This document shows positions 1-25,056 of a DNA stretch of 25,056 nt, piece after piece. The stretch covers positions 1 to 25,056 of the forward strand of contig CBDHHL010000030.1 of the NCBI GenBank assembly GCA_965263355.1. Reading direction: 5' to 3'. This DNA comes from Leptolyngbyaceae cyanobacterium. GTDB taxonomy: Bacteria > Cyanobacteriota > Cyanobacteriia > Phormidesmidales > Phormidesmidaceae. Under the pieces are notes generated by a model, which was not told where the DNA came from, did no database searches, and saw only the letters and a program-made list of their open reading frames with translations. Both the position numbers and the translations under genes were made by a program. Each line of letters begins with the position of its first letter. Positions within the stretch are counted from its first letter, which is position 1.

Positions 1-162
1 CTTTATATGATCCGGTGTGGCCATTATCGCATGGGTATTGAAGCGATTGACCGACGTGCTCCTGGCACAACAAAGGCTAACTGGTTTCTCAATATTGAAG
101 CTTGTAAGAAGAGAGATTTAGTTGCCCCGCATAAACGACGACCTGGCAAAGCAGCCTCCTAA
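1..162 (+). CDS. 3' end of excisionase/recombination-directionality-factor-like small DNA-binding protein (partial; not in ORF track)
   Basis: Frame 1 reads LYMIRCGHYRMGIEAIDRRAPGTTKANWFLNIEACKKRD...* (TAA 160-162) and aligns by eye with LYKVRSGHYRAGKEIIDRRSPQSSRPDWYADIEKCQARD of 3870..4208. It is convergent with the integrase at 159..1280 and overlaps its stop codon. Confidence 0.75.
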   Translation, partial: LYMIRCGHYRMGIEAIDRRAPGTTKANWFLNIEACKKRDLVAPHKRRPGKAAS

Positions 163-1280
163 GAATTGTTTTTCAATGCTTCAAGATATGCCTGGGCAGC
201 TCTTACACTACTAATGTGTTTTTGATAGGTTTCAAGATTTAACGTCGCTGAATGTCCAGCCATCTGTGCTGCTACAGCAGTGGGTAATCCCAGATCTAGC
301 GCTGCTCGGATGTTCCAGGCATGGCGAAGATCATAGGGTTTGAATGGCATTTTATATCGACTGAATTGTGTTGATGTGCGATCGCCATAAATTTTGTTGA
401 TCGGAGCAGTAATGTTGGGTTTCGTAATGTTAGCTAACTTCCAACGATCAACCCAGATACGGGGTAACGGAAACACTTCACGATTGCCAGTTTTTGTTGC
501 GTCCGGCACTAGAGCAATAGGCCATGACTCTCCATCGAATGTTTTGTAGACAATCTCACATAAAAACGCCTCGTGATCGCGTAAACCATAGGTAGCCATT
601 ACTCCGGCAATCCATTGCCACCCGCGATTTTTAATCGTGTCAATAGCGGTGACGATTTGTTCATCTGTTGGAATGGTACGCGTAACTTTCTTGGGGTTAT
701 AACTGCCCTGCTTTGATTTGAGATCGCACTCAATTCCGGCAAACTTTGCCAACCGCTGTAGCTTCTGACAAGCAATCTGCAAGCTCCGACTATTGGGCTT
801 CCATCTAGATGTGGTCTGTTCCAGTAGAGCTGCTGTCAGTTTGCGCTCAGACGTCAGCCACTTGAATGCTGGATACCAGAATTCTTCCTTCCACTTGAGA
901 TTAATGGCATCCTGGTCACCATTTTGAGATTTTAACCAGTCTTTGCGAAATCGTTCTATCCAGTAGCCACAGGTTTCTTTACTACGATCTACTTCCTCTT
1001 CCTGAGCTACCATTTCCCACTCAAATCGCTTTTGAGCGAGCAACCCACCAATGCGCTTGGCCTCAGATTCAGCGAACTTTAACCCGGTCGGATTGGCATA
1101 CACATCTAGACTCAGATATTGCTGATACGGCTTTTGGCGGTTGCTACCAGGTTTAGGCGGCAGCACCGCTCGTAAACTCAGTTTTTCCTGGCGGGTTCCT
1201 CGGGCATAAACACGAACCCCAATGTTAGCTGCCTTCAACCGCTCATTAATCGCTTCAATCGTCAGTACTTTTGAGGGCAT
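159..1280 (-). CDS. Tyrosine recombinase/integrase, XisA/XisC-like family, apparently intact
   Basis: Catalytic motifs MATYGLRDHE (R), KTG (K), YDLRHAW (HxxR position, here YxxR), AGHS (H), ETY (Tyr). The N-terminal LSLRAVLPPKPG...ANPTGLKFAESEA...LLAQKRFEW resembles the XisA/XisC N-terminus. Confidence 0.92.
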   Translation of the reverse strand: MPSKVLTIEAINERLKAANIGVRVYARGTRQEKLSLRAVLPPKPGSNRQKPYQQYLSLDVYANPTGLKFAESEAKRIGGLLAQKRFEWEMVAQEEEVDRSKETCGYWIERFRKDWLKSQNGDQDAINLKWKEEFWYPAFKWLTSERKLTAALLEQTTSRWKPNSRSLQIACQKLQRLAKFAGIECDLKSKQGSYNPKKVTRTIPTDEQIVTAIDTIKNRGWQWIAGVMATYGLRDHEAFLCEIVYKTFDGESWPIALVPDATKTGNREVFPLPRIWVDRWKLANITKPNITAPINKIYGDRTSTQFSRYKMPFKPYDLRHAWNIRAALDLGLPTAVAAQMAGHSATLNLETYQKHISSVRAAQAYLEALKNNS

Positions 1281-1284
1281 GGTG

Positions 1285-1313
1285 TGACCTATCCGTGAAC
1301 TAAATATGAACTA
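1285..1313 (-). repeat. Three 7-bp repeats with 11-bp period, putative integrase arm-type sites
   Basis: TGACCTA 1285, TGAACTA 1296, TGAACTA 1307, immediately upstream of the integrase ATG. Confidence 0.6.
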
Positions 1314-1435
1314 CTTTTTTTCCGTTCTGTGCAGTTGTGTCTGCTGTCTCATTTCGGAGTAGGAAACCTATAGTCTATATATAGCAATAGTTTTACGGAT
1401 TTTTCAAGTCTTTTCAAAAACAACGAGATTTCAAT

Positions 1436-1487
1436 GATTGCCTGTCTTACAAGCAGGATGTCACTGGTTCGAGCCCAGTACCGTCCA
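1436..1487 (+). pseudogene. 3' fragment of tRNA-Val(TAC), att-site remnant
   Basis: CCTGT-CTTACAA-GCAGG anticodon arm, ACTGG-TTCGAGC-CCAGT T-arm and 3' acceptor strand ACCGTCCA. No 5' acceptor strand or D-arm upstream. Confidence 0.9.
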
Positions 1488-1541
1488 TCAAGGAAAGCCA
1501 AGCCCAAAGCTAGTTACAGCGGTTTCTTTAAGAAGTCGTCG

Positions 1542-1616
1542 AACTGACTCAGTGGGGCTGAACTAGAATAAACTGACTAATTTTTAGATCAAAATTAGAT
1601 CAGTAATTTGAGTTCA
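1542..1616 (+). repeat. Putative arm-type/accessory-factor sites upstream of second integrase
   Basis: TAGATCA 1585 and 1596 (11-bp period) and GAGTTCA 1610 mirror the motifs before integrase 1. Also TGAACTA 1559 and AACTGACT(C/A)A 1542 and 1571. Confidence 0.55.
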
Positions 1617-1618
1617 AA

Positions 1619-2748
1619 ATGGGGCGTAGAACACTTACCGTAGAAGCAATCAATGCCAGGTTGGATGCCGCTCAACTGGGGCTAAAGATCTATCAGCGTG
1701 GCGATAAGTTATCCATTCGCGGTACGTTGCCGCCCAAACCCAGTAGCAAGCGGATAAAACCCCATCAGCAGCTAATTAGTCTGGGAGTGTATGCCAACCC
1801 AGCCGGTCTGGAATATGCCGAGTCAGAAGCCTTTCGCCTGGGCGGTTTGCTGGCCCAAAAGCGGTTTAGCTGGGAGGAATTTAGTTTAGAAACCCCAGAT
1901 CAGGCTAAAGATACTGATCTAATTTGTCGGGTTTGGATCGAGCGATTTCGGCTGGAATGGTTGAAGCATCAGGATTCTGATGATGCAGCCACTGATCTAA
2001 AATGGCGCGAGCAGTTTTGGTACCCCGCCTTTAAGTGGCTATCCCCTGATGCGGCCCTGACACCCCATTTATTAGAAAGTGTGGTGCAACGGTGGAAGCC
2101 CAATAGCCGCAGTCGCCAGATTGCCTGCCAAAAATTGCAGCGACTGGCGGACTTTGCCAATATCAAGTCAGATATTAAGGCCCAGCAGGGGGACTACAGC
2201 CTTAGCAATGTAGAGCGCATCATCCCGGAAGATGCCGACATTATTGCCGCCATTGATCAGATGAAAAATAAGTCCTGGCAGTGGGTGGCTGGGATGATGG
2301 CCACCTATAACTTGAGGGACCATGAAGCTTTTCTCTGTGAGGTGGAGTGGCGAGACTATGACGCTGAAAATATGACGATGAAAAATGGCTGGTGGCCCTG
2401 GTGCCTGATGCCACTAAGACAGGCAGACGGGAAACGTTTCCATTGCCTCCTGAATGGGTTGAGCGCTGGCAATTGGGGGATATGCGTCGGCCCAAAGTAA
2501 CGGCCCGAATGAATAAGGACTATGGCGATCGCACCTCCAACGCATTTCAGCGAGCCAAAATGCCGTTTCCTCCCTACAGTTTGCGCCATGCCTGGAATAT
2601 TCGTGCGGCTCTGTGGTTGGAACTGCCCACTGCAGTGGCTTCTCAGGTTATGGGCCACAATCCTAATGTGAACCTGGGCACTTATCAAAAGCACATTTCC
2701 AAAGCGCGGGCAGCTCATATCAAGTCGTTGAGAAGGCCCACACTATGA
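1619..2748 (+). pseudogene. XisA/XisC-like tyrosine integrase paralog, frameshifted by a 14-bp duplication
   Basis: ORFs 1619..2500 and 2392..2748 together align along integrase 1. Removing one copy of TATGACG(C/A)TGAAAA (2357-2370/2371-2384) restores CEVEWRDYDDEKWLVALVPDATKTG. Confidence 0.88.
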
Positions 2749-2914
2749 ATTTTAGAAAAACCTTAAATTACAAGGCATATAGCTTATTTACTCTGGCCGT
2801 ATATTGTGGCTATTCAATCTGACTTGATATCAGGCATATTTTGAAGCGTTAAGACGTAAGCAGGGTGGATAATTCTTTCAAGAACTATGCTGTATATTGT
2901 TAACAGGATTTAGA

Positions 2915-3331
2915 ATGGGATTTCTTGATTTTTTCAGAAACAACAATCACCAAGATAACCAGTTAGCTCTGTTTGAGGGTGAAGAAACCTCGATTATCGA
3001 CAGCACTGAACCGTCCCGTAACCTGGCCAATAAACGCCTCATGGAGGAAGCCAAAAAACGAGGCGGAACTGCTCGTACTTATCCTGCTATCAATGCCTCT
3101 GCCATTCAGGAAATGTTGGGAGAATCACCTGATCAGCTATATGATGCGTTGGGTATTCCGCAAAGCGATCGCAGTCGTCTACCCCAGGCAGCTAAAGAAG
3201 CATTAATGGTTGGCGATATCGCAGCACTGGAGCAAATATTAGACGATAATGCTATTGGGCACCGCCCACTCATGCAAGCTGCTACAAAGGGGTATCGTAA
3301 AGCCAAAGGCATTTTCCGCTGGAATCGGTAG
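2915..3331 (+). CDS. Hypothetical protein, island cargo (weak resemblance to DinD/antirepressor C-terminal helical region)
   Basis: Open frame with ATG at 2915, followed 2 bp after its stop by the next ORF. The family resemblance is by eye only. Confidence 0.6.
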   Translation: MGFLDFFRNNNHQDNQLALFEGEETSIIDSTEPSRNLANKRLMEEAKKRGGTARTYPAINASAIQEMLGESPDQLYDALGIPQSDRSRLPQAAKEALMVGDIAALEQILDDNAIGHRPLMQAATKGYRKAKGIFRWNR

Positions 3332-3333
3332 TC

Positions 3334-3804
3334 ATGCTAAGTCTCAACACACTACGCCAGGAAACCTACGCAAACTGGGAAGTTCTACATTTTTGTAAGG
3401 CTGCTTATCCCCATGCGTCACTCTCTTGGAATGTAGATGACACCACAGCCCAACGTTTACCATACACTAACCAGCCTTTCAAAACCGATATTCGTCAGCA
3501 ATTTGGAGACCTGAGAAAGCGCCATACTTGGCAGCAAGCCGCTATCTATTACGCGGCACTAAGTATGCTCAGCAGTGATTTAGAAAGCTGGCAAATACTT
3601 TGCTGGGCCACTATTCCAAACTACCTTGGTCAGGATCTAATCATGGAGCATTATCAGACTGAACTGCACGACTGTCTGTTTCAGATGCCCAGGTTTATCG
3701 AAATCATCAAAGCCGGTTTAGAACAGCTTTACCAACGCCCCGACCTCTCAGAAGAACGCGCCCAAATCGAAGCCTCTCGCAACATCAATTTGTTACCCGT
3801 TTGA
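3334..3804 (+). CDS. Hypothetical protein, island cargo
   Basis: 156-aa ORF starting 2 bp after the previous stop. No recognisable motif. Confidence 0.6.
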   Translation: MLSLNTLRQETYANWEVLHFCKAAYPHASLSWNVDDTTAQRLPYTNQPFKTDIRQQFGDLRKRHTWQQAAIYYAALSMLSSDLESWQILCWATIPNYLGQDLIMEHYQTELHDCLFQMPRFIEIIKAGLEQLYQRPDLSEERAQIEASRNINLLPV

Positions 3805-3869
3805 GCTATTTGATTGCAATAGCGCATTAGATGGTGAGCTATTCTTTGGCCTGGTTCAGAATGAGGCAA

Positions 3870-4208
3870 TCAAGCACTGCGAAGGGTGGTGCGTTTGGCA
3901 GCTATGGTGCGATCTCGTGCCTGACACTTCTCAATATCGGCGTACCAATCAGGACGGCTAGACTGTGGAGAACGACGGTCTATAATCTCTTTGCCTGCTC
4001 GATAGTGACCAGACCTAACTTTATATAAACAGGCATCATAATTTTTATAGCCCAACAGTTTCCAGGCATCACTGAGCTTGACTAGTTTTGCCGGGGTTTC
4101 TAGTTCAGCATTGAGACGATTATGCAACACCTGTAGTTGTTGCTCAATATCATCCAGCCTGTGATGAAGCTGCCGAAACAACTCTTGCAGCAATTCTCCA
4201 GTATCCAT
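3870..4208 (-). CDS. Putative excisionase/RDF-like winged-helix protein with N-terminal coiled coil
   Basis: LVKLSDAWKLLGY...CLYKVRSG is HTH-like. A paralog at 1..162 sits next to the other integrase. Confidence 0.7.
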   Translation of the reverse strand: MDTGELLQELFRQLHHRLDDIEQQLQVLHNRLNAELETPAKLVKLSDAWKLLGYKNYDACLYKVRSGHYRAGKEIIDRRSPQSSRPDWYADIEKCQARDRTIAAKRTTLRSA

Positions 4209-4525
4209 ATCAAATCCCCAACAGTGATAACAGGGTGAGAAACGGGGAGTATGTCAAACATTCTCAATATGCTTGGTGAACCTTGATGCCACTAATCTTA
4301 GGACACCCTCATTAGTCAGCCCTGTTTTCATGCTGATTACTTTAACTTTCTTGACTAACTAATGCTTGGATATTTTGCTGAAACCACTCAATTACAAAGG
4401 CTTGCATTTCTTTAGAGCCTTTTAAGCATTAGCCTTGAACGAAAAAATATTTAAATTACGCATAATATCAGCATGGCTGCTAAATGCTGAGCGACGATTG
4501 AAGCGGAATTATCAAAAGTCAGTCC

Positions 4526-4951
4526 ATGCCCCGCAGACAAGATCCTTCCTCCACCCCCACAGCAACCGCTGCTGGCAATAAAGCCAGGGTGCGGTTTACC
4601 TTTGAGCCTGACCGTAGTTCTCCCAACGGGATGACCTATAGCTGGCTAATTCATAGAACCTACAAGGGCAAAACAAAAGCTGCTGATGCTGTAAGAGCTT
4701 TTTGGTTACCGTTTGCCTATCAGGATGCAAATAATCACTCTGAATCAGAACTCAAGGACCTTGCCCAACAATCTATCTGGCGAATGGAAGAACAAATTCA
4801 ACATCTGCGGGAAACCTTTGGACTGAAAGTTCCACTAAGAAGAACAGAACCAGCAGAGGTTACAGAAATAGATCCTCTTGCAGCACTTACAGAGGAGACT
4901 TCTCGTTTGAACCAGACGGATCTGCTTGATGACTTTTCCGATGTGCTCTAG
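4526..4951 (+). CDS. Hypothetical protein, divergent from the excisionase-like gene
   Basis: 141-aa ORF with acidic C-terminal tail. No function supportable. Confidence 0.6.
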   Translation: MPRRQDPSSTPTATAAGNKARVRFTFEPDRSSPNGMTYSWLIHRTYKGKTKAADAVRAFWLPFAYQDANNHSESELKDLAQQSIWRMEEQIQHLRETFGLKVPLRRTEPAEVTEIDPLAALTEETSRLNQTDLLDDFSDVL

Positions 4952-4993
4952 GAGGTGATGGTGACAAAGTCATCCAATTCTAAAGTTTCATCT

Positions 4994-5021
4994 GAATCTC
5001 TCAAACTTTAAAGAGAGATTC
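4994..5021. terminator. Inverted repeat, possible terminator
   Basis: GAATCTCTC (4994-5002) pairs with GAGAGATTC (5013-5021), between convergent genes. Confidence 0.35.
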
Positions 5022-5193
5022 TTGTATGGTAGTTAATTTGTTATGTTAGGATCCCTGTGTTCAGTTTCAATAGGGATAAAGGAGATTAATACTGGCTCCT
5101 GACTCAATATACTAAGAAGACTGTTGCTCAGGTGCAATCAAGCCAAATGTGACAATCAGTAGGGGAGGCGATAGTTTCTGTTGGAAATCGCTC

Positions 5194-5526
5194 TCAATCC
5201 TTTGAGCCATTAATTTTTCGGCCTAGATTTCCCTTCTCATAGGAGTCTTCGGCATTTACGTTAGGCCTGCATATCGTAGTCAGCTTCCATCGCTCCACCC
5301 ATTCTGGGTAAAAGGCTTGATAAACGAGACGAGGACCCGTTTTTCCCTTAAGGACTTGTAAGCCTTCATTTGTAAATTCGCAGAAGAAACCCTCATGGGG
5401 ACGAATACCATAGGTAGCCATCATTCCATAAACCCACTGCCAGTTTTGATTAGGAATTTGTTCTCTCCACTCAGCAATTAATTCGTTAGTGGTAGAACTT
5501 CCTCTTCGACGGTTGGACAATAACAA
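5194..5526 (-). pseudogene. Internal fragment of a third XisA-like tyrosine integrase
   Basis: WQWVYGMMATYGIRPHE...KGKTGPR...PEWVERWKL matches the catalytic core of integrases 1 and 2. N- and C-termini are missing. Confidence 0.82.
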
Positions 5527-5599
5527 GTGATCCTTTTTCTCTGGAAGTGGGCGGGCGTGACCTCTTTGTCGACTTTGGGGCCGAAAAATTACTCATTGC

Positions 5600-6405
5600 T
5601 CAACGTAAAAACCAGAAAATTGCTGTAGAAGTCAAATTGGTAGCCCCCCGCGCACTGTCTCGTTTATAACTCTCCCCAATCCAAATTTGGGAAATATCGT
5701 CTGCAATTACCCCCCAGCGCAAACCAAGGGCTTCCCCCGTACGACAGCCCGTACCAAAGAGAAAACGAATCAAAGGCGTATAGTACCGATAGGCCCTGGA
5801 CTCATCCATGGTGCTGATAATGGCTCGGATTTCATCCAGGGTAAAGGGTTGGGGTGACTCAATAGGCGGCACCTTAAATGCCGAAATCATTGTCTTCCAT
5901 GGATTTTCCTTAAGCAGCCCTGCTGCAATGCCCCATTCCCAGGCAGCATTGATCACTGAGAAATATTCTGCTGCACTAATGGGAGAAATCTGAGTCAGCA
6001 GATAATCCCGAAATAATATGGTCGTGCGCTCAGTATAGTCAGCGGCCAGTTTGGTGTTGGCAAATTTGGCTAGCTTTTTCTCAACGTGCTGATACTTTTC
6101 CAGAGTTTAGCGGCCACCAGTTTGGATTTGGCAAACTCTTCCAGCAATGACTGACCAGTCAGCTCACGGGATGCCTTTGCCGTATCGCTCTTATATTTCA
6201 TCAGACTGGGGTCAAAGTGCCCGGTGGCCATATCCATCTCGATTTGCCGGGCTTTCATCTCTGCGGCGGCCCGTCCAATGGACTCGTCAACTAACCCCAA
6301 ACTAAATTGGTACCGTTTCCCCTGCCACGACCAGCGCAAGGATAAACGCCCGTTGCGCTCCAGAATGACCACGGTACCTGCTTTTGCTTTAGACCGGACT
6401 GCCAT
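5600..6405 (-). pseudogene. Frameshifted, C-terminally truncated phage-type tyrosine integrase with N-terminal arm-binding (DUF3596-like) domain
   Basis: N-terminal GRLSLRWSWQGKRYQFSLGL...AEMKARQIEMDMATGHFDPSLMKY and catalytic FLFGTGCRTGEALGLRW lie in different frames. No HxxR or Tyr box follows. Directly downstream of tRNA-Val(GAC). Confidence 0.85.
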
Positions 6406-6536: not shown

Positions 6537-6610
6537 TGGACGTACGCCGACTCGAACGGCGGACCTCATCGATGTCAACGATGCGCTCTAACCAACTGAG
6601 CTATACGTCC
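6537..6610 (-). tRNA. trnV: tRNA-Val(GAC)
   Basis: Reverse complement GGACGTATAGCTCAGTTGGTTAGAGCGCATCGTTGACATCGATGAGGTCCGCCGTTCGAGTCGGCGTACGTCCA folds to a full cloverleaf with anticodon GAC. Confidence 0.97.
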
Positions 6611-7623: not shown

Positions 7624-9078
7624 ATGCTGCTTCGCTTGTTAACGTTCGGCACAGCCATTCTGCTATTTACGTTCCCAGGCCAGCTAGCCTGGGCTGATGT
7701 TCCACCTAAGTTAATTGCCCAGGTCGATAACGCCACTGCTGAAACAGCAGACTCGGACGATGAGAGTTCTCAACCTGACGATACATCTGAAAATGCGGTT
7801 GAGACACCCGATGAGGCCATTCCTGAGGAGCCTTTAGATGACGTAGATCAGCTAATTCTTGAAGGATTAACCCTCTATGAAAACGGCAATTTGTCGGCAG
7901 CAAAAACGCCCTTAGAACAAGCGCTGGCCGATGCTCGCACGAATGAAAACCCGGTCCAGGAATCGTTTGCCCTTACCTTACTGGGGTTAGTCACCGTCAA
8001 CCAAGGAGATAATGCCGCTGCTGCTGACTACAGTCAGCAGGCCCTGACGGTCTTGGAACAGGTAGACGATCCTGAATCCACCGTAGTCGCTCTCAATGTC
8101 CTGGCGCTAGCCACTCAATCCCAGGGAAATTTCCCTGATGCTATTGCCTACGGTCAGGAAGCCCTCAGGGTGTCCGAAAGCATTAGCTTTGACTCGGGTA
8201 AATTGAATTCACTGAGCATTTTGGCAACCAGCTACAGAACAGTGGGGCAATATCCCCTGGCCCTAGAGGCTGCGCAGTTAATGATTCCGCTGGCGCAATC
8301 AGAGCGCAATGGTCGAGCCCTATTGACGGCTCTAAATGTAGCCAGTTCTTCGCTATTGAGCCTGGAAGATTATGAAACAGCACTCACAGCGTCTCAAGAT
8401 GCCCTTAGCATTGCCACTGAATTAGACAATCAGCCAGGGCGCGCGTTGGCCCTTAGCAATGTCGGCAGGGCCCACTATCGATTAGGAAACCTGGAAGAGG
8501 CAATTGAGTCTCAAACTGAGGCGTTGGAATTAGCTGAAGAAGTGGGTTCGTTAGATGTGCAGCTAACAGCACTCTATGTGTTGGCGCTGGCCTCCTATGA
8601 CCAGGAAGAGTTAGAAACTGCCGTTGATTTTTATCAACAGCGGTTGGAGTTAAGTCGTAACGCTAATGCTGTGGGTGCCGAGTTACAGTCGCTTTTAGGG
8701 CTGAGTTCGGTCTATTTGGATAGTGGTCAGTATGAGGATGCGATCGCATCGTTTGACAATTTGTTAGCCCTCTCAGAAGAGCGTAACCATCGTCTGTTTC
8801 AAAGTTTGAGCCTTTCTGGCTTAGGCTTTGCCAATGCCCAGCTAGAGAACTATCCCACAGCCCAGGGCCATCTTGAGCAAGCCCTGGTAATTTCTCAAGA
8901 AATGGGCGATAGCGCCACCGAATTTGGCCTCTTAAGTTTGTTGGTCGAGGTCCATCAAGCCCAAAATAATCTGCAACAGGCTGCAGACTATGCAGCCCAA
9001 GCAGCGGCTTTGCAAGCAGAAGCAGCGGCGGCAGAAGAGTCATCTTCCCCAGAGGATGCAGCGGATAATATTGAATAA
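7624..9078 (+). CDS. Secreted acidic tetratricopeptide repeat protein
   Basis: Hydrophobic signal peptide ending AWA, acidic linker, then ~40-aa TPR units (e.g. ALSNVGRAHYRLGNLEEAIESQTEAL). Confidence 0.85.
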   Translation: MLLRLLTFGTAILLFTFPGQLAWADVPPKLIAQVDNATAETADSDDESSQPDDTSENAVETPDEAIPEEPLDDVDQLILEGLTLYENGNLSAAKTPLEQALADARTNENPVQESFALTLLGLVTVNQGDNAAAADYSQQALTVLEQVDDPESTVVALNVLALATQSQGNFPDAIAYGQEALRVSESISFDSGKLNSLSILATSYRTVGQYPLALEAAQLMIPLAQSERNGRALLTALNVASSSLLSLEDYETALTASQDALSIATELDNQPGRALALSNVGRAHYRLGNLEEAIESQTEALELAEEVGSLDVQLTALYVLALASYDQEELETAVDFYQQRLELSRNANAVGAELQSLLGLSSVYLDSGQYEDAIASFDNLLALSEERNHRLFQSLSLSGLGFANAQLENYPTAQGHLEQALVISQEMGDSATEFGLLSLLVEVHQAQNNLQQAADYAAQAAALQAEAAAAEESSSPEDAADNIE

Positions 9079-14703: not shown

Positions 14704-17097
14704 CTAATCTTTATCACTTGCGGCGATGTATCCCCAGCTATAGGCCGTTGGTCCAATGGACTGGTGCACTGTAAATTCAGTTACCGGCACATAGTAGTAG
14801 GAATCAAAATAGGCCTCGGCTGTAGGCCATTCCCAAGGGCTAGGACTCATTTCCTTGGCAAACTTTTTAATCGCTGCTTCCCACTTACCCGCATGACCAT
14901 TGGGGTTTTGCACATCCATGGGGCCATAGACGGTAATTCCAGGTGGGGGTTCTTGCCCAGATGCACGCATATCTGCCATTAAGGGCATTTGAGGATTTCG
15001 GTACCCTAAACCGATGGTGTACATCATATTGCTAGGGTTGGCACCCGCAGCAAATTGAGTGGCTAAAATGCCTGCCCGTAAATAAGCTTCGTCCCCAGTC
15101 AGGGTATGGGCATGGAACAGGGCGCGAGTTTTGGGAGTAGTCATAGAGCCCCAACCAATGGCACTTTTAGGATCTGCATTCCACTTAAAGCCAGTGCTCT
15201 CGATAGTTTCAATGTCACGTTTGGCAGCTTTGACAATAGCGTTGATCCCGTTTTGCTGAACTGTCTGATCGACTGACCGTTGGGTGCGCGCATAGACAAA
15301 TGCACTATGGCTTTGGTCATAGTAGCTGTGGGGTGATACGGATGCATTCGCATCCTTAAACGCTGTTGTATTTAGAAAGAGTTGATGCCATTTATCATTA
15401 CCGGTTAGCCGATATAGCTCCGCAGCCGCCAAATTTCGCTGCGAATCAACAATTTGGTGTTGTTTGTCTGTGGTTTTAGCCAGCTCGGCCTCGGCCCAGT
15501 CCATGGCTCGAATTGCACTTTCTTGATAGGTTTGGGCTAAGGCTTTGTCGTAATTCTCTAATACATAGGCAGCGCGAGCAGCTACATTGGCGTAGAAAAA
15601 GCTAGACCAAATGCCTGGACCATAGGCCATAACTGTGAGAGATTCTTGCCAGCTGCCTTGGGGCTTAATGGGATGCTCTGCAGATTCAATTCCCCCTGGA
15701 ATGCCCCCGTCTTTGGTTTGTAGACGGCGGAATACATCCAGACCCCATAGGGCTTCATCCAGAATATCGGGTAAGTTATTACTGGATTCCGGTAGATTTA
15801 GCTTGATAGCATCGAAATACTCTGGATGGAGTTCTACTAATTCTAAAAACGACCGACTCACATGCAGGTGAGAAATACGACGATCCCAATCCCCGGCATC
15901 CATCCATCCACCCCAGGCATTGGAAAGTTCCTCATCAGTACGAGTATTGACCAGAGCTTCAAAGGCATTCAGCCCATCCCGATAGTTAAACCCCATACGG
16001 GTATCCATCAATGGCACCGTGGACTGATAGATCACCATGCCGTCTTCAGGGTGAAATGGACGGAGCCGTTGGTAATCGGTGTAGGGCTGCTCTAGGGCAA
16101 TGCCACTGCGCTGATGGTACATGCCTCGGGCTGACACATAGAAGCCATCACGCCAGGTATTTTCGCCAATTTCAAATTCGTAGGATGTGCCTACGCCATC
16201 GACATAAATACGATACTGACCGGGAACCGAAAATTCACTAAAGTCCATCATGAAGACATCGGTTTGATGATGGTTTCTATCCTGTCGATCCCTATAGTCT
16301 TTTGACTGCGATAGGATAGTCTTACCTGCGTAGACTTTTTCATCCGTTGCTGCATCCATTAGCCAGAAAGGTTTGCCGGTTTCATAATCCAGGCCACCCC
16401 CATTGCCCATCCAGGTGGACAAAAAGGCAACTTTGGCTGGATCATCAGGATCAAAACCCAGGTGGGAGATTTGTACAGCCTCACTGCGAGTTTGTTCAGG
16501 CTTATAAACAAACGTCATGTCGTTTAGGCCCTTTTTGCCAAAGCTAATTCGATAGGTTTCGCCAATAGTTAGCTTTTCGGGCAGTTCTAGGTATAGGGTA
16601 TGCACCATGGGCCATTCGAACTGCCAGGGACCGGTTTCAGCCATGGAACTGATATTGCTTTTACGGTAGATATTAATGGGAGTAATCTTAGTGCCATTGC
16701 TGGTCGTAATTTTGTAATGGCTGAGGACATCCACACAGTCGGTATTGAGTTTTGGTCCCACATATTGATCGGCTAACCAGATCATGTTGGGGGTATCTGG
16801 AACCAACTGGCCAAAAAATTTGCCCTGGCGCGATATCCAACCGTCTTTCTTAACCACATCCCCAGGTTCTGCTTCGTAAACGACTTGCTTACCACGGACC
16901 AGTTCACCCGTTTCTATCCGTAGCGCCAACATATTTTCACTTACGGTGTAAATATGGGTGCTCAAGAGGTTGGAGGAATCGACCTCTTGAGCAGAGGCGA
17001 GGTTAACAACGGCAGCCGGTTGAAAGCTAGAAAGTCTAGCATTGCATTGGCCAGCGTTAGTCCAACCAAGTAGAAAAGAGAGAAGATTTTCTAGCAT
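14704..17097 (-). CDS. Glycoside hydrolase family 9 with N-terminal Ig-like domain
   Basis: Ig-like region (QISHLGFDPDDPAKVA...DFSEFSVPGQY), YHQRSG, GGWMDAGDWD catalytic Asp motif and C-terminal EFTVHQ catalytic Glu. Confidence 0.9.
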   Translation of the reverse strand: MLENLLSFLLGWTNAGQCNARLSSFQPAAVVNLASAQEVDSSNLLSTHIYTVSENMLALRIETGELVRGKQVVYEAEPGDVVKKDGWISRQGKFFGQLVPDTPNMIWLADQYVGPKLNTDCVDVLSHYKITTSNGTKITPINIYRKSNISSMAETGPWQFEWPMVHTLYLELPEKLTIGETYRISFGKKGLNDMTFVYKPEQTRSEAVQISHLGFDPDDPAKVAFLSTWMGNGGGLDYETGKPFWLMDAATDEKVYAGKTILSQSKDYRDRQDRNHHQTDVFMMDFSEFSVPGQYRIYVDGVGTSYEFEIGENTWRDGFYVSARGMYHQRSGIALEQPYTDYQRLRPFHPEDGMVIYQSTVPLMDTRMGFNYRDGLNAFEALVNTRTDEELSNAWGGWMDAGDWDRRISHLHVSRSFLELVELHPEYFDAIKLNLPESSNNLPDILDEALWGLDVFRRLQTKDGGIPGGIESAEHPIKPQGSWQESLTVMAYGPGIWSSFFYANVAARAAYVLENYDKALAQTYQESAIRAMDWAEAELAKTTDKQHQIVDSQRNLAAAELYRLTGNDKWHQLFLNTTAFKDANASVSPHSYYDQSHSAFVYARTQRSVDQTVQQNGINAIVKAAKRDIETIESTGFKWNADPKSAIGWGSMTTPKTRALFHAHTLTGDEAYLRAGILATQFAAGANPSNMMYTIGLGYRNPQMPLMADMRASGQEPPPGITVYGPMDVQNPNGHAGKWEAAIKKFAKEMSPSPWEWPTAEAYFDSYYYVPVTEFTVHQSIGPTAYSWGYIAASDKD

Positions 17098-17765: not shown

Positions 17766-20158
17766 TCAGATGTTTAATGCAGCCTCTACCCTATTAATCC
17801 AACTCTGTAATGCCTGAGTATTGGGATGATTTGAACCTAACGTTGTTTGGTAGATCGGCAATGCCTGCAACAGTAATGACTGAGCCGCCTCATATTGGCC
17901 CTGCTGATATCGTAATACCCCAAGGTTAAAGAGGCTAGTGGCCACAGAGGGATGCTCGTCGCCCAACACGCGTTTTCTCATCGCCAGGGCCTCTTGGTAA
18001 GAGCGGTTCAGCCTCTGAGTAGCGCCCTTGATTGTCGTAGAGCCCTGCCAGATTGTTGAGGCTAGTGGCCACATCGGGATGCTCGTCGCCCAACACGCGT
18101 TTGCTCATCGCCAGGGCCTCTTGGTAGAGCGGTTCAGCCTCTGAGTAGCGCCCTTGATTGTCGTAGAGCCCTGCCAGATTGTTGAGGCTAGTGGCCACAT
18201 AGGGATGCTCGTCGCCCAACACGCGTTTGCTCATCGCCAGGGCCTCTTGGTAGAGCGGTTCAGCCTCTGAGTAGCGCCCTTGATTGTTGTAGAGCCCTGC
18301 CAGATTGTTGAGGCTAGTGGCCACATCGGGATGCTCGTCGCCCAACACGCGTTTGCTCATCGCCAGGGCCTCTTGGTAGAGCGGTTCAGCCTCTGAGTAG
18401 CGCCCTTGATTTTCGTAGAGCAAGGCCAGATTGTTGAGGCTTTGTGGCCACATCGGGATGCTCGTCGCCCAACACGCGTTTTCTCATCGCCAGGGCCTCT
18501 TGGTAGAGCGGTTCAGCCTCTGAGTAGCGCCCTTGATTGTCGTAGAGCAAGGCCAGATTGTTGAGGCTAGTGGCCACATAGGGATGCTCGTCGCCCAACC
18601 CGCGTTTTCTCATCGCCAGGGCCTCTTGGTAGAGCGGTTCAGCCTCTGAGTAGCGCCCTTGATTGTAGTAGAGCCCTGCCAGATTGTTGAGGCTAGTGGC
18701 CACAGAGGGATGCTCGTCGCCCAACACGCGTTTTCTCATCGCCAGGGCCTCTTGGTAGAGCGGTTCAGCCTCTGAGTAGCGCCCTTGATTGTCGTAGAGC
18801 AAGGCCAGATTGTTGAGGCTACTGGCCACATCGGGATGCTCGTCGCCCAACCGCTCACGCGCCATGGTTAGACAAAATTTACGCCAAGTCTCAGCTTGAG
18901 CATAGAGCCCTTGACCTTCATAAAAGCGACCGAGACCAATGTAGGGCCAGACCAAATTGTCATCGCTTAGGTGAGCGTTCCACTGATGAATCACTTCAGC
19001 CATATGGGGAGTCAGGTCACTCCAGGCTAACCACTGAGACTGTGTCGGTGTCTCATCCAGCTCTTGAGCCGCTGCCACCATGGTTTGACAGTAGGTCGCT
19101 ATCAACGATGATGATTCCGACACCTTAGTCCGAATAAACCGTTGAATCAACTGATGGTATTGATAGCGCTTTTCCTCTACTCGGCGTATTACACTCAAGC
19201 GTAGTAATTCATCATCCCGTTGTTCCTCCAGGTCTTCGGCATCCACGTCTGGGAAACACGCCTCAACACGGTCCCAGGAAATCGGAGCGAGTGCAAAACA
19301 GCTCAACAAACAGGCCAATGTCTGAGCCTCGTCGCTGAGGGCTTGCCAGCTTAATTCAAAGGCACTGGCTACCCCTAAGGGATTCGTCATCCCCGATTCT
19401 GCGTTGACTAACGCACGGGCTGCAAACGCTTGAGCCTTTAGCCGTCGTTGCATCTCTACCAGGGAGAGATCCGGTTTTCGCGCCAGATACCGCCCGACTA
19501 ACTCCAAAGCTAAGGGTAAATATCCCAGCCAGTTACACAGAGCCTTTGCCTGCCCCAACTCCGCTTCAATGCGGGTTGCCCCCACCAATTGTTTAAGCAA
19601 GTCCAGCGCAGCAGGTTCTTCAAGGACCTCAATATTGACTGAGGTCACGTTAGTCGCTAGATGCTGTCGTCGGGTGGTGAGCAGTAGGGTAAACCGTTTA
19701 TTGGTCGGTAAATAGGGGGCAATGGCTTCATAGTGTGTGACATCATCCACCACGATGAGTACTGAAGCGGGTGACTCTACCTCAGAAAACTGGGGCCATT
19801 GATTCCAGCAATAGGCAATTCTGGCGTTTAATGGCAGCTCGTCAGACGGATTTAGGTCTAAGTACCCAGCCGCAAACGCCAGTATCTGAGGGGCAATGTC
19901 CTGGTCCCGCGATTCCAGCCAGCACACCCCACCGGGATAATCAGAGTCTTCATAGGCTCTCACATACTGCAGGGCCAGCTCTGTTTTGCCGATGCCGCCC
20001 ATGCCCACCACAGCCGTAATCGCTACCTGGTGAGACTGCTGTAGTTGGTTATGCAGCCGCTGTAAATCAGACTCCCGACCCACAAAGTGTCGGGTGCCCT
20101 TTAGAGGCGTGTTATTAGGGGGCGTTAGCTTTGTCCGTGCCCGCTCAGACGACTCTAG
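17766..20158 (-). CDS. NB-ARC + TPR (NLR-like STAND) protein, copy B; two apparent frameshifts in the repeat array; true start unresolved
   Basis: FVGRE, Walker A GMGGIGKT, Walker B LIVVDDV, GYLPLAL, YHQL, then 42-aa TPRs. The frame is open from 20158. ORFs 18386..20083, 17935..18453 and 17766..18074 are pieces of one gene. Confidence 0.88.
17935..18860 (-). repeat. Near-identical 126-bp TPR tandem array (8 GDEHP motifs)
   Basis: GGGATGCTCGTCGCCCAAC at 17949, 18076, 18202, 18328, 18455, 18581, 18707, 18833. Confidence 0.95.
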
Positions 20159-20272
20159 CTAATAGCTGATATTAACGGTATTATCCTGACCCAGGATGAC
20201 AGGAGCTGTCGGATTATTGACCTGATTACTTTCACCGCCGAACACGTTTTGTTCGTTCTGAGGATTGCTCAT
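20159..20272 (-). CDS. 37-aa N/Q/G-rich putative amyloid-signalling peptide, in frame with downstream NB-ARC (not in ORF track)
   Basis: MSNPQNEQNVFGGESNQVNNPTAPVILGQDNTVNISY*(TAG 20161-20159) matches the C-terminus of 24317..24742 (QNVFGGEANQVNNPTGPVITGGSNNTYNITT). Confidence 0.75.
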   Translation of the reverse strand: MSNPQNEQNVFGGESNQVNNPTAPVILGQDNTVNISY

Positions 20273-20288
20273 GGGTCAGGAACATAGG

Positions 20289-20335
20289 AAGAACATCTGT
20301 CCCTGTTATGGCTTATCGAGCCCGGATTTAGCAAG
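20289..20335 (-). promoter_or_regulatory. Putative promoter shared by both NLR loci
   Basis: Minus strand TTGCTA-18 bp-CATAAC-AGGG..AGATGTTCTT, conserved at 24761-24806. Confidence 0.55.
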
Positions 20336-20415
20336 ATAGGTTGATAAACTGGTTGATTCGGGAGGATGGCAACTTCGTTAAGGCTGCTGGCAACCTATTC
20401 TTAGTGTGGATTGAT

Positions 20416-20664
20416 ATGAGTATTGTGATTTCAGATGAAATAATCAGAGCGTCTGAGCTAAGTCAGGCGGAATTTTTGCAGGAAATTGCCCTCCATCTAT
20501 TTCAATCAGGGCGGTTAACCCTGGGCTATGCGGCCCAAATGGCTGAGATGGAGAGATTTGCGTTTCAGGCGTTTCTCAAATCTCGACAAGTACCACTTTA
20601 TGTTTATGACGTAGAAGATTTTGAGGTAGATCTGAAAAACTTACGCGAGCTAAACCGCCTGTGA
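20416..20664 (+). CDS. UPF0175 family antitoxin-like protein
   Basis: MSIVISDEII...EIALHLFQSGRLTLGYAAQMA...F...L...VP. ATG 20416 preferred. Confidence 0.85.
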   Translation: MSIVISDEIIRASELSQAEFLQEIALHLFQSGRLTLGYAAQMAEMERFAFQAFLKSRQVPLYVYDVEDFEVDLKNLRELNRL

Positions 20665-20690
20665 TCATTATCAGTGACACGTCAGTCATT
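20661..20690 (+). pseudogene. First ~10 codons of a DUF3368/PIN-type toxin; remainder missing
   Basis: GTGA overlap with the UPF0175 stop reads MIIISDTSVI, the typical DUF3368 N-terminus. Similarity then ends and the frame stops soon after. Confidence 0.6.
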
Positions 20691-20932
20691 TTCGTCTTCA
20701 GTCGTTATTATGGGCTACCTGCAATTCGCCCTTGGCAATGACTTTGATACGTTTTGCAACGTTGGGATAGTCCCCCAGGTTTGACCTAATTCCAGCGTCA
20801 GCATCTCTAGCTGGCTTTTTCTCATTCAGTCACAGACAAGCGCGTTTGCAACCTATACTGAATTTGAATATCCTCGAAACGATTGCCCGTGTAGTTCTCA
20901 GTTAAAATTCCGGCTTAGGAATACTGCTTAAA

Positions 20933-21493
20933 ATGACCGTCCAAATTCTGCGAAAAAAATTCACGATAGGACAGTATCACCAGATGATTGAGTCTGGCAT
21001 TTTAACTGACCGGGATCATGTGGAACTCATTCAGGGAGAAATTATTGAAATGTCGCCCGTTGGCAGACACCATGCCGCCTGTGTAGACCGCCTCAATGAG
21101 CTATTAGTCTTAAAATTATTCCGAAAAGCATTGATTCGAGTGCAAAGTCCAATTCTCCTCAGTGACGACTCTGAACCACAGCCGGATGTCTCCATCCTGC
21201 AACGACGAGAAGATTTTTATCATGCAGGGCACCCCACTCCTGCCGATATTTTTGCCCTGGTGGAAGTATCCGATAGCACTATTGACTTTGATCGAGACGT
21301 GAAAGTCCCTATATACGCTCAGGAACAGATTCCTGAGGTTTGGCTGGTTAACTTAAACGATACCCATATTGAGCGCTATCGCCAGCCCATTGCTAACACT
21401 TATCAACAACGGCAGATTTTTAATCTGGGAGAAACGCTTAACTTTCAAGCATTTCGTGATGTTCCTATAGAGGTAATTCAAGTCTTTGGATAG
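20933..21493 (+). CDS. Uma2 family (DUF820) endonuclease-fold protein
   Basis: VELIQGEIIEMSP, SEPQPDV, LVEVSDST, KVPIYA..IPEVWLVNL. Confidence 0.93.
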   Translation: MTVQILRKKFTIGQYHQMIESGILTDRDHVELIQGEIIEMSPVGRHHAACVDRLNELLVLKLFRKALIRVQSPILLSDDSEPQPDVSILQRREDFYHAGHPTPADIFALVEVSDSTIDFDRDVKVPIYAQEQIPEVWLVNLNDTHIERYRQPIANTYQQRQIFNLGETLNFQAFRDVPIEVIQVFG

Positions 21494-21670
21494 AGCAAAT
21501 GAGTTATCTCAAGATGGGTACATGGGTAGATGGGTTCTGTTTATCTCTCACCTATTCACTATAAATTGTTTACGCACGCTATGGTGAAAACATAAGCTTG
21601 GATGTTGCGTTTCAACTAGCCCTAGCCTCATGTCTGTTATTTTTTTATGCCAAAACATACTTGAATTCGC

Positions 21671-24316
21671 TCAGGTGTTTAATGCAGCCTCTACCCCATC
21701 AATCCAACTCTGTAATGCCTGAGTATTGGGATGATTTGAACCTAACGTTGTTTGGTAGATCGGCAATGCCTGCAACAGTAATGACTGAGCCGCCTTGATA
21801 TTGGCCCTGCTGATATCGTAATACCTCCAAGGTTAAAGAGGCTAGTGGCCACATCGGGATGCTCGTCGCCCAACACGCGTTTTCTCATCGCCAGGGCCTC
21901 TTGGTAGAGCGGTTCAGCCTCTGAGTAGCGCCCTTGATTGTCGTAGAGCAAGGCCAGATTGTTGAGGCTAGTGGCCACATCGGGATGCTCGTCGCCCAAC
22001 ACGCGTTTGCTCATCGCCAGGGCCTCTTGTAAGAGCGGTTCAGCCTCTGAGTAGCGCCCTTGATTGTCGTAGAGCCCTGCCAGATTGTTGAGGCTAGTGG
22101 CCACTAGGGATGCTCGTCGCCCAACACGCGTTTGCTCATCGCCAGGGGTAAGAGCGGTTCAGCCTCTGAGTAGCGCCCCGTAGAGCCCTGCCAGATTGTT
22201 GAGGCTATTGGTAGGGATGCTCGTCGCCCAACACGCGTTTTCTCATCGCCAGGGCCTCTTGTAAGAGCGGTTCAGCCTCTGAGTAGCGCCCTTGATTGTC
22301 GTAGAGCCCTGCCAGATTGTTGAGGCTAGTGGCCACAGAGGGATGCTCGTCGCCCAACACGCGTTTGCTCATCGCCAGGGCCTCTTGGTAGAGCGGTTCA
22401 GCCTCTGAGTAGCGCCCTTGATTGTCGTAGAGCCCTGCCAGATTGTTGAGGCTTTGGGCCACATCGGGATGCTCGTCGCCCAACACGCGTTTTCTCATCG
22501 CCAGGGCCTCTTGGTAGAGCGGTTCAGCCTCTGAGTAGCGCCCTTGATTTGAGGCTAGTGGTAGAGCCCTGCCAGATTGTTGAGGCTAGTGGCCACTACT
22601 GGCCACATAGGGATGCTCGTCGCCCAACACGCGTTTTCTCATCGCCAGGGCCTCTTGGTAGAGCGGTTCAGCCTCTGAGTAGCGCCCTTGATTGTCGTAG
22701 AGCCTGCCAGATTGTTGAGGCTAGTGGCCACATCGGGATGCTCGTCGCCCAACACGCGTTTTCTCATCGCCAGGGCCTCTTGTAAGAGCGGTTCAGCCTC
22801 TGAGTAGCGCCCTTGATTGTCGTAGAGCCCTGCCAGATTGTTGAGGCTAGTGGCCACATAGGGATGCTCGTCGCCCAACACGCGTTTTCTCATCGCCAGG
22901 GCCTCTTGGTAGAGCGGTTCAGCCTCTGAGTAGCGCCCTTGATTGTCGTAGAGAGCCCTGCCAGATTGTTGAGGCTACTGGCCACAGATAGGGATGCTCC
23001 TCGCCCAACCGCTCACACGCCATGGTTAGACAAGTGTCGTACCAAGTCTCAGCTTGAGCATAGAGCCCTTGACCTTCATAAAAGCGACCGAGACCAATGT
23101 AGGGCCAGACCAAATTGTCATCGCTTAGGTGAGCGTTCCACTGATGAATCACTTCAGCCATATGGGGAGTCAGGTCACTCCAAGCTAACCACTGAGACTG
23201 TGTCGGTGTCTCATCCAGCTCTTGAGCCGCTGCCACCATGGTTTGACAGTAGGTCGCTATCAACGGTGATGATTCCGACACCTTAGTCCGAATAAACCGT
23301 TGAATCAACTGATGGTATTGATAGCGCTTTTCCTCTACTCGGCGTATTACACTCAAGCGTAGTAATTCATCATCCCGTTGTTCCTCCAGGTCTTCGGCAT
23401 CCACGTCTGGGAAACACGCCTCAACACGGTCCCAGGAAATCGGAGCGAGTGCAAAACAGCTCAACAAACAGGCCAACGCCTGAGCCTCGTCGCTGAGGGC
23501 TTGCCAGCTTAATTCAAAGGCACTGGCTACCCCTAAGGTATTCGTCATCCCCGATTCTGCGTTGACTAATGCACGGGCTGCAAACGCTTGAGCCTTTAGC
23601 CGTCGTTGCATCTCTACCAGGGAGAGATCCGGTTTTCGCGCCAGATACCGCCCGACTAACTCCAAAGCTAAGGGTAAATATCCCAGCCAGTCACACAGAG
23701 CCTTTGCCTGCCCCAACTCCGCTTCAATGCGGGTTGCCCCCACCAATTGTTTAAGCAAGTCCAGCGCAGCAGGTTCTTCAAGGACCTCAATATTGACTGA
23801 GGTCACGTTAGTCGCTAGATGCTGTCGCCGGGTGGTGAGCAGTAGGGTAAACCGTTTGTTGGTCGGTAAATAGGGGGCAATGGCTTCATAGTGTGTGACA
23901 TCATCCACCACGATGAGTACTGAAGCGGGTGACCCTACCTCAGAAAACTGGGGCCATTGATTCCAGCAATAAGCAATTCTGGCGTTTAATGGCAGCTCGT
24001 CAGACGGATTTAGGTCTAAGTACCCAGCCGCAAACGCCAGTATCTGAGGGGCAATGTCCTGGTCCCGCGATTCCAGCCAGCAGACCCCACCGGGATAATC
24101 AGAGTCTCCATAGGCTCTCACATACTGCAGGGCCAGCTCTGTCTTACCGATGCCGCCCATGCCCACCACAGCCGTAATCGCTACCTGGTGAGACTGCTGT
24201 AGTTGATTATGTAACCGCTGTAAATCAGACTCCCGACCCACAAAGTGCTGGGTGCCTTTTCGCGGTGTATTATTGGGGGGCGTTAGCTTTGTCTGTGCCC
24301 GCTCAGACGACTCCAG
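21671..24316 (-). CDS. NB-ARC + TPR (NLR-like STAND) protein, copy A; repeat array with several indels; true start unresolved
   Basis: Near-identical to copy B. Stop TGA at 21673-21671 (…QSWIDGVEAALNT*). Frame open from 24316. ORF-track pieces 22919..24241, 22639..22893, 22205..22498, 21742..22104. Confidence 0.85.
21840..23010 (-). repeat. 126-bp TPR tandem array (10 G(D/E)EHP motifs, two units garbled)
   Basis: Motif at ~21856, 21982, 22107, 22213, 22340, 22466, 22610, 22735, 22861, 22991. Irregular spacing at 22107-22213 and 22466-22610. Confidence 0.9.
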
Positions 24317-24742
24317 TCAAGTCGTAATGTTGTATGTATTATTGCTACCACCCGTGATCACAGGGCCGGTCGGATTATTCACCTGGTTGGCTTCACCACC
24401 GAACACATTCTGTACATTCTGGCCTTGCACCTGGCCAATACTAATCACCTGCTGAATCTCTTGTGCTAAAGATTTCACCTGTTGGGCAAACTCGTCATCC
24501 TCAGCCATCGCTACGCCTAGGTAATTCGTGACCGTTTCCTTATCGGTCTCATCTCCCTTATCAGCCCGAGCCAGGGCCGCTTTCGCTTTTCCCTGAAACT
24601 TAGAACTGATCAGCTCTGTTAATGCGCTTAATTTTTGACCCAACTGTTTACGGGCATCGTCCGTTAAGGATTTGGTAAGTGTGCCAACCGCCGTTGTAAA
24701 AATTAGCGTTGCGATTGAGGCCGCTGTAATTGGGTCTGTCAT
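24317..24742 (-). CDS. BELL-like helical effector with C-terminal amyloid-like (BASS-type) motif
   Basis: Hydrophobic N-terminal helix MTDPITAASIATLIF, helical core ending AMAEDDEFAQQVKSLAQEI, then N/Q/G-rich tail. Adjacent to an NB-ARC-TPR gene, as known for BELL/BASS proteins. Confidence 0.75.
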   Translation of the reverse strand: MTDPITAASIATLIFTTAVGTLTKSLTDDARKQLGQKLSALTELISSKFQGKAKAALARADKGDETDKETVTNYLGVAMAEDDEFAQQVKSLAQEIQQVISIGQVQGQNVQNVFGGEANQVNNPTGPVITGGSNNTYNITT

Positions 24743-24760
24743 AGTCTAGAACGATTAAAA

Positions 24761-24806
24761 AAGAACATCTCCCCTGTTATGGCTTATTCACCCCAGAGTT
24801 AGCAAG
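24761..24806 (-). promoter_or_regulatory. Putative promoter of copy A
   Basis: TTGCTA (24805-24800)-18 bp-CATAAC (24781-24776), same as upstream of copy B. Confidence 0.55.
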
Positions 24807-25056
24807 TACCCTTGATGGATTTTTATTCAAATAAAAAGGCCCCTGCATAATCACAGAAGCCTCATTTGATGTTCTTTTGTACGATCTATTCAGACCGACA
24901 GAATATTAGTATGGCTCAAGTCGCTGGCATTGTGATCAGATTGGATTTTGACCTCTGGACTAATCGCGGCCTAAATCGGTCAACTGTCACACTCCTCAAC
25001 CCCTGATTCAATGGTTAAGGGCATTCGCTGAAACCCTTATAACTGCGTTGATTAGT

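Follow-up and report, generated by a model that had tools for sequence, protein, structure and literature searches.

How can a receptor signal through an amyloid motif that is missing from its own reading frame? This question is raised by a 25,056-nt stretch of DNA from a Leptolyngbyaceae cyanobacterium (contig CBDHHL010000030.1, the whole of which is hereafter called the window). A small Bell-like effector protein with a predicted C-terminal amyloid signalling motif and an NB-ARC-TPR receptor are encoded there one after the other in a single frame, which is interrupted by one stop codon. In classical Bell pairs the gene of the NOD-like receptor (NLR) has its own start and its own copy of the motif, according to the available text of Dyrka et al. 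(10.1101/2020.01.06.895854). For the window we propose that programmed readthrough of the stop would yield much effector and little motif-bearing receptor from one gene, serving amyloid-triggered cell death, and we regard this model as a whole as probable.

Two cassettes are found on the minus strand. In cassette A, the effector gene (24317–24742, 141 residues, ending in TGA) contains copy A of the motif (24320–24421) and is followed by predicted readthrough signal A (24278–24319) and receptor A (21671–24316). Cassette B consists of a 37-residue motif-only open reading frame (ORF) with no Bell domain (20159–20272; ATG at 20272, TAG at 20161–20159), predicted readthrough signal B (20120–20161) and receptor B (17766–20158). 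In the six-frame translation both motif ORFs stop at a homologous codon (TGA in A, TAG in B), beyond which the same frame runs on into the NB-ARC domain. The receptors are paralogues with 97.7% DNA identity across the first 1277 nt past the stop, and NB-ARC is matched by Pfam in both (E about 1e-16), in agreement with the two NB-ARC-TPR genes listed in the initial annotation. Its layout of a shared motif with a motif-bearing NLR gene does not stand, as neither NB-ARC frame contains the motif and both lie behind the in-frame stop. A second motif copy is indeed present upstream of the second receptor, but it sits in the 37-residue ORF cut off by TAG and not at the 5′ end of the receptor gene. 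The stop with its predicted pseudoknot and the frameshifts in the TPR arrays had gone unmentioned. In both NB-ARC frames the first ATG comes no earlier than codon 53, a position inside Walker A, and the first GTG encodes the Val of FVGRE. A conserved leader element, a possible −10 box, is common to copy A (24772–24783, about 41 nt upstream of the ATG), copy B (20301–20312, about 40 nt upstream) and close homologues; element A is absent from the consensus promoter matches of the window. The copy B ORF shares its leader and the distance to the ATG with copy A but has no helical domain. Contigs of runs X1 and X2 cross the copy B TAG, with no stop variant among the variants listed; no contig piece across the copy A TGA is found among the pieces listed.

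Homology places the window protein in the Bell group. It matches RS01205 of Nostoc PCC 7120 and AM1_RS36955 of Acaryochloris marina with 35–36% identity (E 9e-15 and 3e-16), and the tails of these two proteins are letter-identical to the published Bell-side BASS entries Ccya03_s025 and s023, which bears out the BELL/BASS identity suggested earlier. The N-terminus is hydrophobic (MTDPITAASIATLIF), and Asp3 and Pro4 are at least 90% conserved among 27 close homologues, giving the acidic residue at position 2–3 that characterizes MEPIS-like N-termini. Within a search window of 77–247 residues, 25 of the 27 database relatives are 138–145 residues long. The AlphaFold2 model, based on 57 sequences, is a five-helix bundle spanning residues 7–106 (helices 7–18, 28–48, 52–58, 65–81 and 83–106), with a mean predicted local distance difference test score of 76.9, about 85–93 in the core and about 50 in the motif tail. 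The initial description of the ORF at 24742–24317 as a small helical protein with a hydrophobic N-terminus and a C-terminal motif is consistent with this model. A Foldseek search returned no solved structure at E ≤ 0.001; the best fold match is the coiled-coil region of ZAR1 (6j5t_G; Z 6.3, root mean square deviation 3.2, 76 aligned residues), tied with unrelated bundles. Neither the Bell protein nor its 85-member alignment could be assigned to a family by sequence searches of Pfam, NCBIfam, PADLOC and the PDB. An Atlas search returned unnamed cyanobacterial clusters, one of them with PF20701 (HetE-N) on 14% of its members, a below-threshold recognition that serves as a lead only. Other effector layouts occur in the family: in L031 (1501–2704) and L095 a Bell-like domain is fused to, or followed by, a sequence that looks CHAT-like by eye.

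Motif A is rich in N, Q, G, V and T (8 N, 5 G, 5 T, 4 V and 2 Q among 33 residues) and aligns collinearly with the Ccya03-type tails; judged from its sequence, it is a BASS-like variant alignable with the Ccya03 class. Its words NVQNV, GGEGNQ and QVNDP have no match in the part of the published Bell-side BASS supplement that was searched. From the set sizes, Ccya03 would correspond to BASS9 and C07 to BASS5. Between motifs A and B, 24 of 33 aligned codons retain the residue, with a score (118) higher than all 200 shuffles. The codon differences among the 33 comprise 11 synonymous and 9 residue-changing ones, and this balance suggests that the motif B peptide is under selection. A DNA search of 172 genomes for further motif-only cassettes gave only leader or junction matches. 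In locus L170 the motif tail carries tandem NNIETQ-like pseudorepeats, as in β-solenoid amyloid motifs.

The arrangement of cassette A is not confined to the window. We found 111 junctions in several orders of Cyanobacteria, including Nostoc PCC 7120 and A. marina. The frame stays open for at least 100 codons past the stop in 104 of them (83/89, 4/5 further plasmid loci and 17/17); among the other seven, two leave the contig and five lose the frame early. In the first 13 homologous loci, 12 keep the frame (9 TGA, 3 TAG) and the remaining one is a classical pair. A profile search matched 60 of 172 genomes of the family. Of 77 distinct Bell-like stops, 42 have the post-stop signature and 35 lack it. 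All but one of the 42 continue in frame for at least 80 codons, the exception leaving its contig. Only eight of the 35 stops without the signature do so: three have their own ATG at codon 5–6, one is a variant of the element and four extend for just 81–88 codons. A covariance model built from 57 nt of the junction alone was then applied to 151 genomes of the phylum, with 37 candidates scored per genome. All 14 examined new matches at E < 1e-3 end a Bell-like ORF and 13 enter an NTPase in frame; 14 loci at E 1e-3 to 0.05, as well as L176 and L177, were junk and were excluded before counting. The model matches 46 of 150 family genomes. A pattern search matched 17 of 401 genomes, all of at least 4.9 Mb, and added 17 new loci.

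What do these junctions have in common? In an alignment of 44 junctions the stop is preceded by U and followed by C, and an 8-nt spacer leads to a 5-bp stem in which compensatory changes as well as G-U pairs are seen. The loop of this hairpin is paired with a stretch 9–11 nt past stem 1, forming stem 2, and the whole is a predicted H-type pseudoknot. In signal A the TGA (24319–24317) and the spacer are followed by stem 1 (24308–24304 with 24295–24291), stem 2 (24300–24297 with 24281–24278) and an A-rich loop 2 of 9 nt. Signal B has a TAG, the 8-nt spacer, a stem 1 with one U-G pair, and stem 2. Covariation in stem 1 is 0.557 vs 0.20 after shuffling (0/500 as high), and the result held in a set of 49 matches that included 47 new ones (0.442 vs 0.134). 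Stem 2, which is not modelled as pairs in covariance model R1, gives 0.393 vs 0.172 (0/500), with slid controls at or below 0.166. Its partner-swap score is 11.3 vs 9.8 ± 0.2 (0/300), and it has at least 4 bp in all 17 further loci from the pattern search. For the nine-pair pseudoknot, 89% of positions are paired and the covariation is 0.557 vs 0.203 (0/500; slid controls ≤ 0.117). The G-U pairs in the stems point to a structure that acts as RNA. No Rfam family is found at the junctions, the junction pattern has no match in viral_contigs, and a short spacer-only pattern did no better than its control. Two other candidates were rejected. A hairpin containing the stop shows no covariation, and for translational bypassing (stop-hopping) matched take-off and landing codons occur in 54/94 loci vs 50.9 expected, with 72 of 300 swaps as high.

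The stop codon varies in kind while remaining a stop. Among 89 junctions it is TGA in 60, TAG in 28 and TAA in one. A pattern that also allowed TGG and TAA gave 22 matches, 21 with TGA and one with TAG, and none for the reversed control. In the training set, where stop identity was no selection criterion, TAA accounts for 1/42 element stops vs 7/35 other Bell stops. C at +4 is found in 84/89 element loci vs 5/34 others, a comparison that is partly circular. UGA-C is a weak terminator in bacteria.

The proteins encoded downstream are diverse, forming 12 clusters at 35% identity, with NB-ARC matched in 71 of 83 and NACHT in 15. The first ATG lies at or past Walker A in 63 of 79 loci, and the RefSeq starts of six named in-frame genes are ATT (four), ATC or TTG. 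A natural stop-free fusion of Bell, motif and NB-ARC exists in P0029 of Adonisia turfae. Other partners were also observed. In L185 (3501–4601; Tolypothrix PCC 7601 plasmid) the element joins the Bell-motif ORF to a protein that is annotated as PsbP-related and has a hydrophobic segment; in L012 (5001–6281) the partner is a protein without a detected P-loop. On A. marina pREB4 (L180, 1329–5457) a Bell-NLR cassette of the readthrough type precedes another Bell-motif protein, which has a C-terminal domain of no known kind fused to it.

When a single test is applied to both classes, a motif duplicate past the stop is found in 1 of 43 Bell loci with the element but in 24 of 31 that lack it, so the element takes the place of the classical duplicated motif. 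The duplicate is also absent from 42 further element loci, as judged by in-frame translation only, and from 17 more; copy A of the window has none after its stop (p 0.68). On the Bell tree the two layouts alternate with 11 changes, of which at least six are forced by well-supported branches. This tree was made by a quick method from 116 columns, and its P0029 row, a wrong segment from the N-terminal ATPase, was disregarded. The near-identical L045 and L052 differ in layout, and the same NB-ARC subfamily is found in both layouts on Acaryochloris plasmids. On Anabaena cylindrica pANACY.03 (L184, 3501–6931) a classical motif pair lies beside a dTMP kinase gene, and no P-loop is seen in the part of the second gene that was read. 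The near-absence of the duplicate where the element is present, the late first ATG, the non-ATG starts in RefSeq and the stop-free fusion are most simply explained if the receptor acquires its motif via readthrough. That readthrough or an equivalent fusion event takes place is very probable.

Based on these features, we propose the following mechanism. Most ribosomes would terminate at the junction, yielding the small Bell effector that bears the predicted amyloid motif. A minority would pass the stop, aided by the weak U-stop-C context and the predicted pseudoknot 8 nt downstream, and produce a Bell-motif-NB-ARC-TPR receptor; that readthrough is partial is inferred by analogy with the signal of murine leukaemia virus (MuLV; 8-nt spacer, pseudoknot) and UGA-CUA viral signals. 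Upon sensing a ligand, probably related to phage, the receptor would oligomerize, and an amyloid seed would arise from its motifs. Free effector, present in abundance, would be converted by this seed and would go on to damage the membrane with its N-terminal helix, as others have shown for Bab/Agp and HET-S. In cassette B, readthrough would give a motif-NB-ARC-TPR receptor that feeds the copy A effector, and termination a free 37-residue motif peptide that may amplify or buffer signalling. The earlier idea of two receptors feeding one effector is therefore plausible, but only if translation passes the in-frame stop. An amyloid-gated death function is likely. The frame, the stop, the covarying structure, the mutual exclusion with the duplicated motif and the Bell homology are observed here; readthrough itself, the ratio of the two products, amyloid formation, killing and defence are predictions. 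With somewhat more reserve, though still on the favourable side, we suggest that the portable 45-nt stop-plus-pseudoknot would be a widespread bacterial programmed-readthrough signal, which cyanobacteria would use as a plug-in joint to link any new sensor domain with an amyloid-gated death effector, the ratio being fixed and possibly tunable by infection.

Several observations weigh against this proposal. An ATG precedes Walker A in 16 of 79 loci, and in the last set of 17 loci, where 11 have none, six have one. An ATG, GTG or TTG precedes the FVGR motif in 33 of 69, where separate initiation is possible by codons alone. P0029, the sole fusion found, has an extra N-terminal ATPase. No other junction was seen in a motif-only cassette of the copy B kind, and one element locus, L068, is scored as having the motif duplicate. 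The frame is lost early in L036 (81 residues), L045 (86), L158 (46), L107 (32) and L187 (20); the early-breaking junctions include Leptolyngbya boryana, which is one base short in a G run. Stem 2 has just 2–3 bp in 26 of 94 junctions, and even with stem 2 partners swapped, 4 bp are reached in about 51 of 94. Single-sequence folding of the window junctions, with a model that lacks pseudoknots, is no better than for shuffles (z −1.69 and +0.68). The test loci were chosen with a model that holds the stop context, so that the counts of the stop and of positions −1 and +4 are partly circular, and the loci are related by descent. Both TPR arrays of the window are interrupted by frameshifts, which counts as well if the arrays are truly broken.

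The junctions could also be read as two separate genes, with NB-ARC translation initiating just past the stop at CUG or another non-AUG codon or by termination-reinitiation. The pseudoknot would then control initiation or mRNA stability, and the receptor would activate the effector without a motif. The codon after the stop is CTG in 32 of 89 loci, an early GTG, TTG or ATG is found in some linkers, and termination-reinitiation is common in prokaryotes (PMC6728339, in the part available). However, the commonest codon at this position is CTA (39/89), CCA, CCG, ACA and TTC also occur, and the first possible starts are spread over codons 1 to 119. Separate genes need not keep the frame, yet it is kept in 104 of 111 junctions, and the mutual exclusion of element and duplicated motif would be left unexplained. 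We consider this arrangement unlikely.

Readthrough could be real but serve other signalling, for example in development or cell–cell recognition in filaments, instead of amyloid-mediated death or defence. The Bell protein has no match among the PADLOC models, not all partners are NLRs (no P-loop found in L012; the hydrophobic segment and PsbP-related annotation in L185), and the accessible part of 10.1101/2024.11.07.622273 calls the function of Bell/NLR pairs unsettled. The homology to published Bell/BASS proteins argues for immunity instead, as do the variable TPR units and the frequent swapping of sensors, and the same source describes amyloid-controlled abortive infection by the Bell-related Bab/Agp pair. 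A role outside death or defence has a slim chance.

A dedicated factor might recode or remove the stop, through adenosine-to-inosine editing of UAG/UGA to Trp, a suppressor tRNA, or insertion of selenocysteine (Sec) or pyrrolysine (Pyl). TAG and TGA are each one A-to-G step from TGG, TAA is rare (1/89), and a hairpin 3′ of UGA is reminiscent of the bacterial selenocysteine insertion sequence. Such a factor is nevertheless very improbable: TGA and TAG interchange among close homologues and inside the window, with TAG in 28/89, and the stop lies outside the covarying structure, the hairpin containing it being without covariation. Furthermore, tRNA-Sec scores over the cut-off in 0/5 element-bearing genomes vs 5/14 controls, with Pyl and suppressor tRNAs outside the search. 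An origin of the stops by nonsense mutation or misassembly, in fusion genes undergoing decay, would fit the many indels in the window TPR arrays and the existence of a stop-free fusion. For the junction this reading is effectively refuted: TGA, TAG and TAA occur at a single position among 111 loci of several orders, complete records included, the covarying structure is conserved, and independent contigs span the copy B TAG.

A comparison of the proposed scheme with known systems shows both likeness and difference. As in the Bell/BASS-NLR pairs described in the available text of 10.1101/2020.01.06.895854, a cyanobacterial effector of 120–150 residues with a C-terminal Q/N/G-rich motif adjoins a collinear NB-ARC/NACHT-repeat gene, and several homologues of the window protein are in the published Bell-side set, as far as covered by supplement 1 of PMC8086366. 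Unlike in those pairs, one motif-coding stretch here would serve both proteins via the in-frame stop and the pseudoknot; the same Dyrka et al. text, as available, contains none of the terms stop codon, readthrough, read-through or in frame. The all-in-one Bell-NLR fusions mentioned there, like P0029, have the architecture of the would-be readthrough product and yield no free effector, whereas a leaky stop would yield both products. The E. coli Bab/Agp pair (BASS11; 10.1101/2024.11.07.622273, accessible part) has a similar helical membrane-targeting effector with a MEPIS-like N-terminus, and amyloid templating from its sensor provides an experimental precedent for the function proposed here. 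It differs in its TPR-GreA/B-PIN sensor, its shorter Babybell domain and its two ordinary genes, and the accessible text mentions no readthrough. We infer templating and membrane damage for the window from this pair.

In fungi, the NWD2/HET-S and HELLP pairs signal from receptor to effector via a common amyloid motif, with the two partners encoded by separate genes. The window effector has no sequence match or significant fold match to fungal HET-S/HELLP-type proteins. The junction itself is most similar to the MuLV gag-pol and alphavirus-type signals, where, according to the consulted part of PMC3159437, a leaky stop has a CUA/CUG 3′ context, a compact pseudoknot or stem begins after an 8-nt spacer, and a shorter and a longer product arise in a set proportion. 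Those signals act on eukaryotic ribosomes, unlike this bacterial chromosomal or plasmid element, whose stems are much shorter (5 bp and about 4 bp) and which uses UGA and UAG alike. In the available portions of the Bell and amyloid-signalling literature (including PMC8086366, PMC12261475, PMC7918605 and PMC5009743) there is no description of the element, and the term stop codon is absent from five papers on amyloid signalling; further published material, such as the 2020 Dyrka et al. journal article with its tables and the subscription literature, may bear on novelty. Within sources of the same partial coverage, no report was found of structure-driven stop-codon readthrough in bacterial immune genes.

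If true, the proposal would add a common, structure-driven stop-codon readthrough to bacteria, as a counterpart of the retroviral gag-pol signal. It would also solve a design problem of amyloid signalling, providing identical motifs in receptor and effector, and effector in excess, with no duplicated motif. Many cyanobacterial Bell genes without a matching NLR-side motif would be accounted for, as would NB-ARC neighbours annotated from ATT or ATC, and many NLR gene models would be wrong. The standard strain Nostoc PCC 7120 carries the system as RS01205/RS01200.

The TPR arrays of the window are built from near-identical 126-nt units, 9.3 copies in A and 7.3 in B. Unit lengths range from 107 to 144 nt, two B units being 127 nt long, and several units of receptor A are frameshifted. 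Several of the extra bases are missing from contigs, so the frameshifts are probably assembly errors, although reads from repeats map ambiguously and real decay is a less likely alternative. The 42-residue units (17931–18851 and 21838–23009) vary at a few fixed positions (D/S/Y, AG/AL, D/Y/N), a pattern like that of the high-identity repeat sensors of fungal NLRs, and the array is possibly one that diversifies recognition. Contigs of X1 and X4 join 24757 to 24466 (region 24404–24818), omitting most of the Bell domain, and may reflect a further cassette, Bell-less or swapped, of a related strain. The UPF0175 and Uma2 genes between the cassettes (20341–21493, plus strand) are probably not part of the system. 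Farther away, positions 159–6405 contain a cluster of integrase-like ORFs and small ORFs of no known family, ending at a tRNA-Val gene (6537–6610). The ORFs at 159–1280 and 1619–2748 are divergent paralogues, the second frameshifted, with fragments at 5194–6405. The region looks like an integrated element; the integrase call was made by eye from an HxLRH-like motif, and the integrase-like ORFs have no Pfam or NCBIfam match. A separate TPR protein (7624–9078) and a secreted-looking protein of the GH9 cellulase family (14704–17097) are ordinary neighbours.

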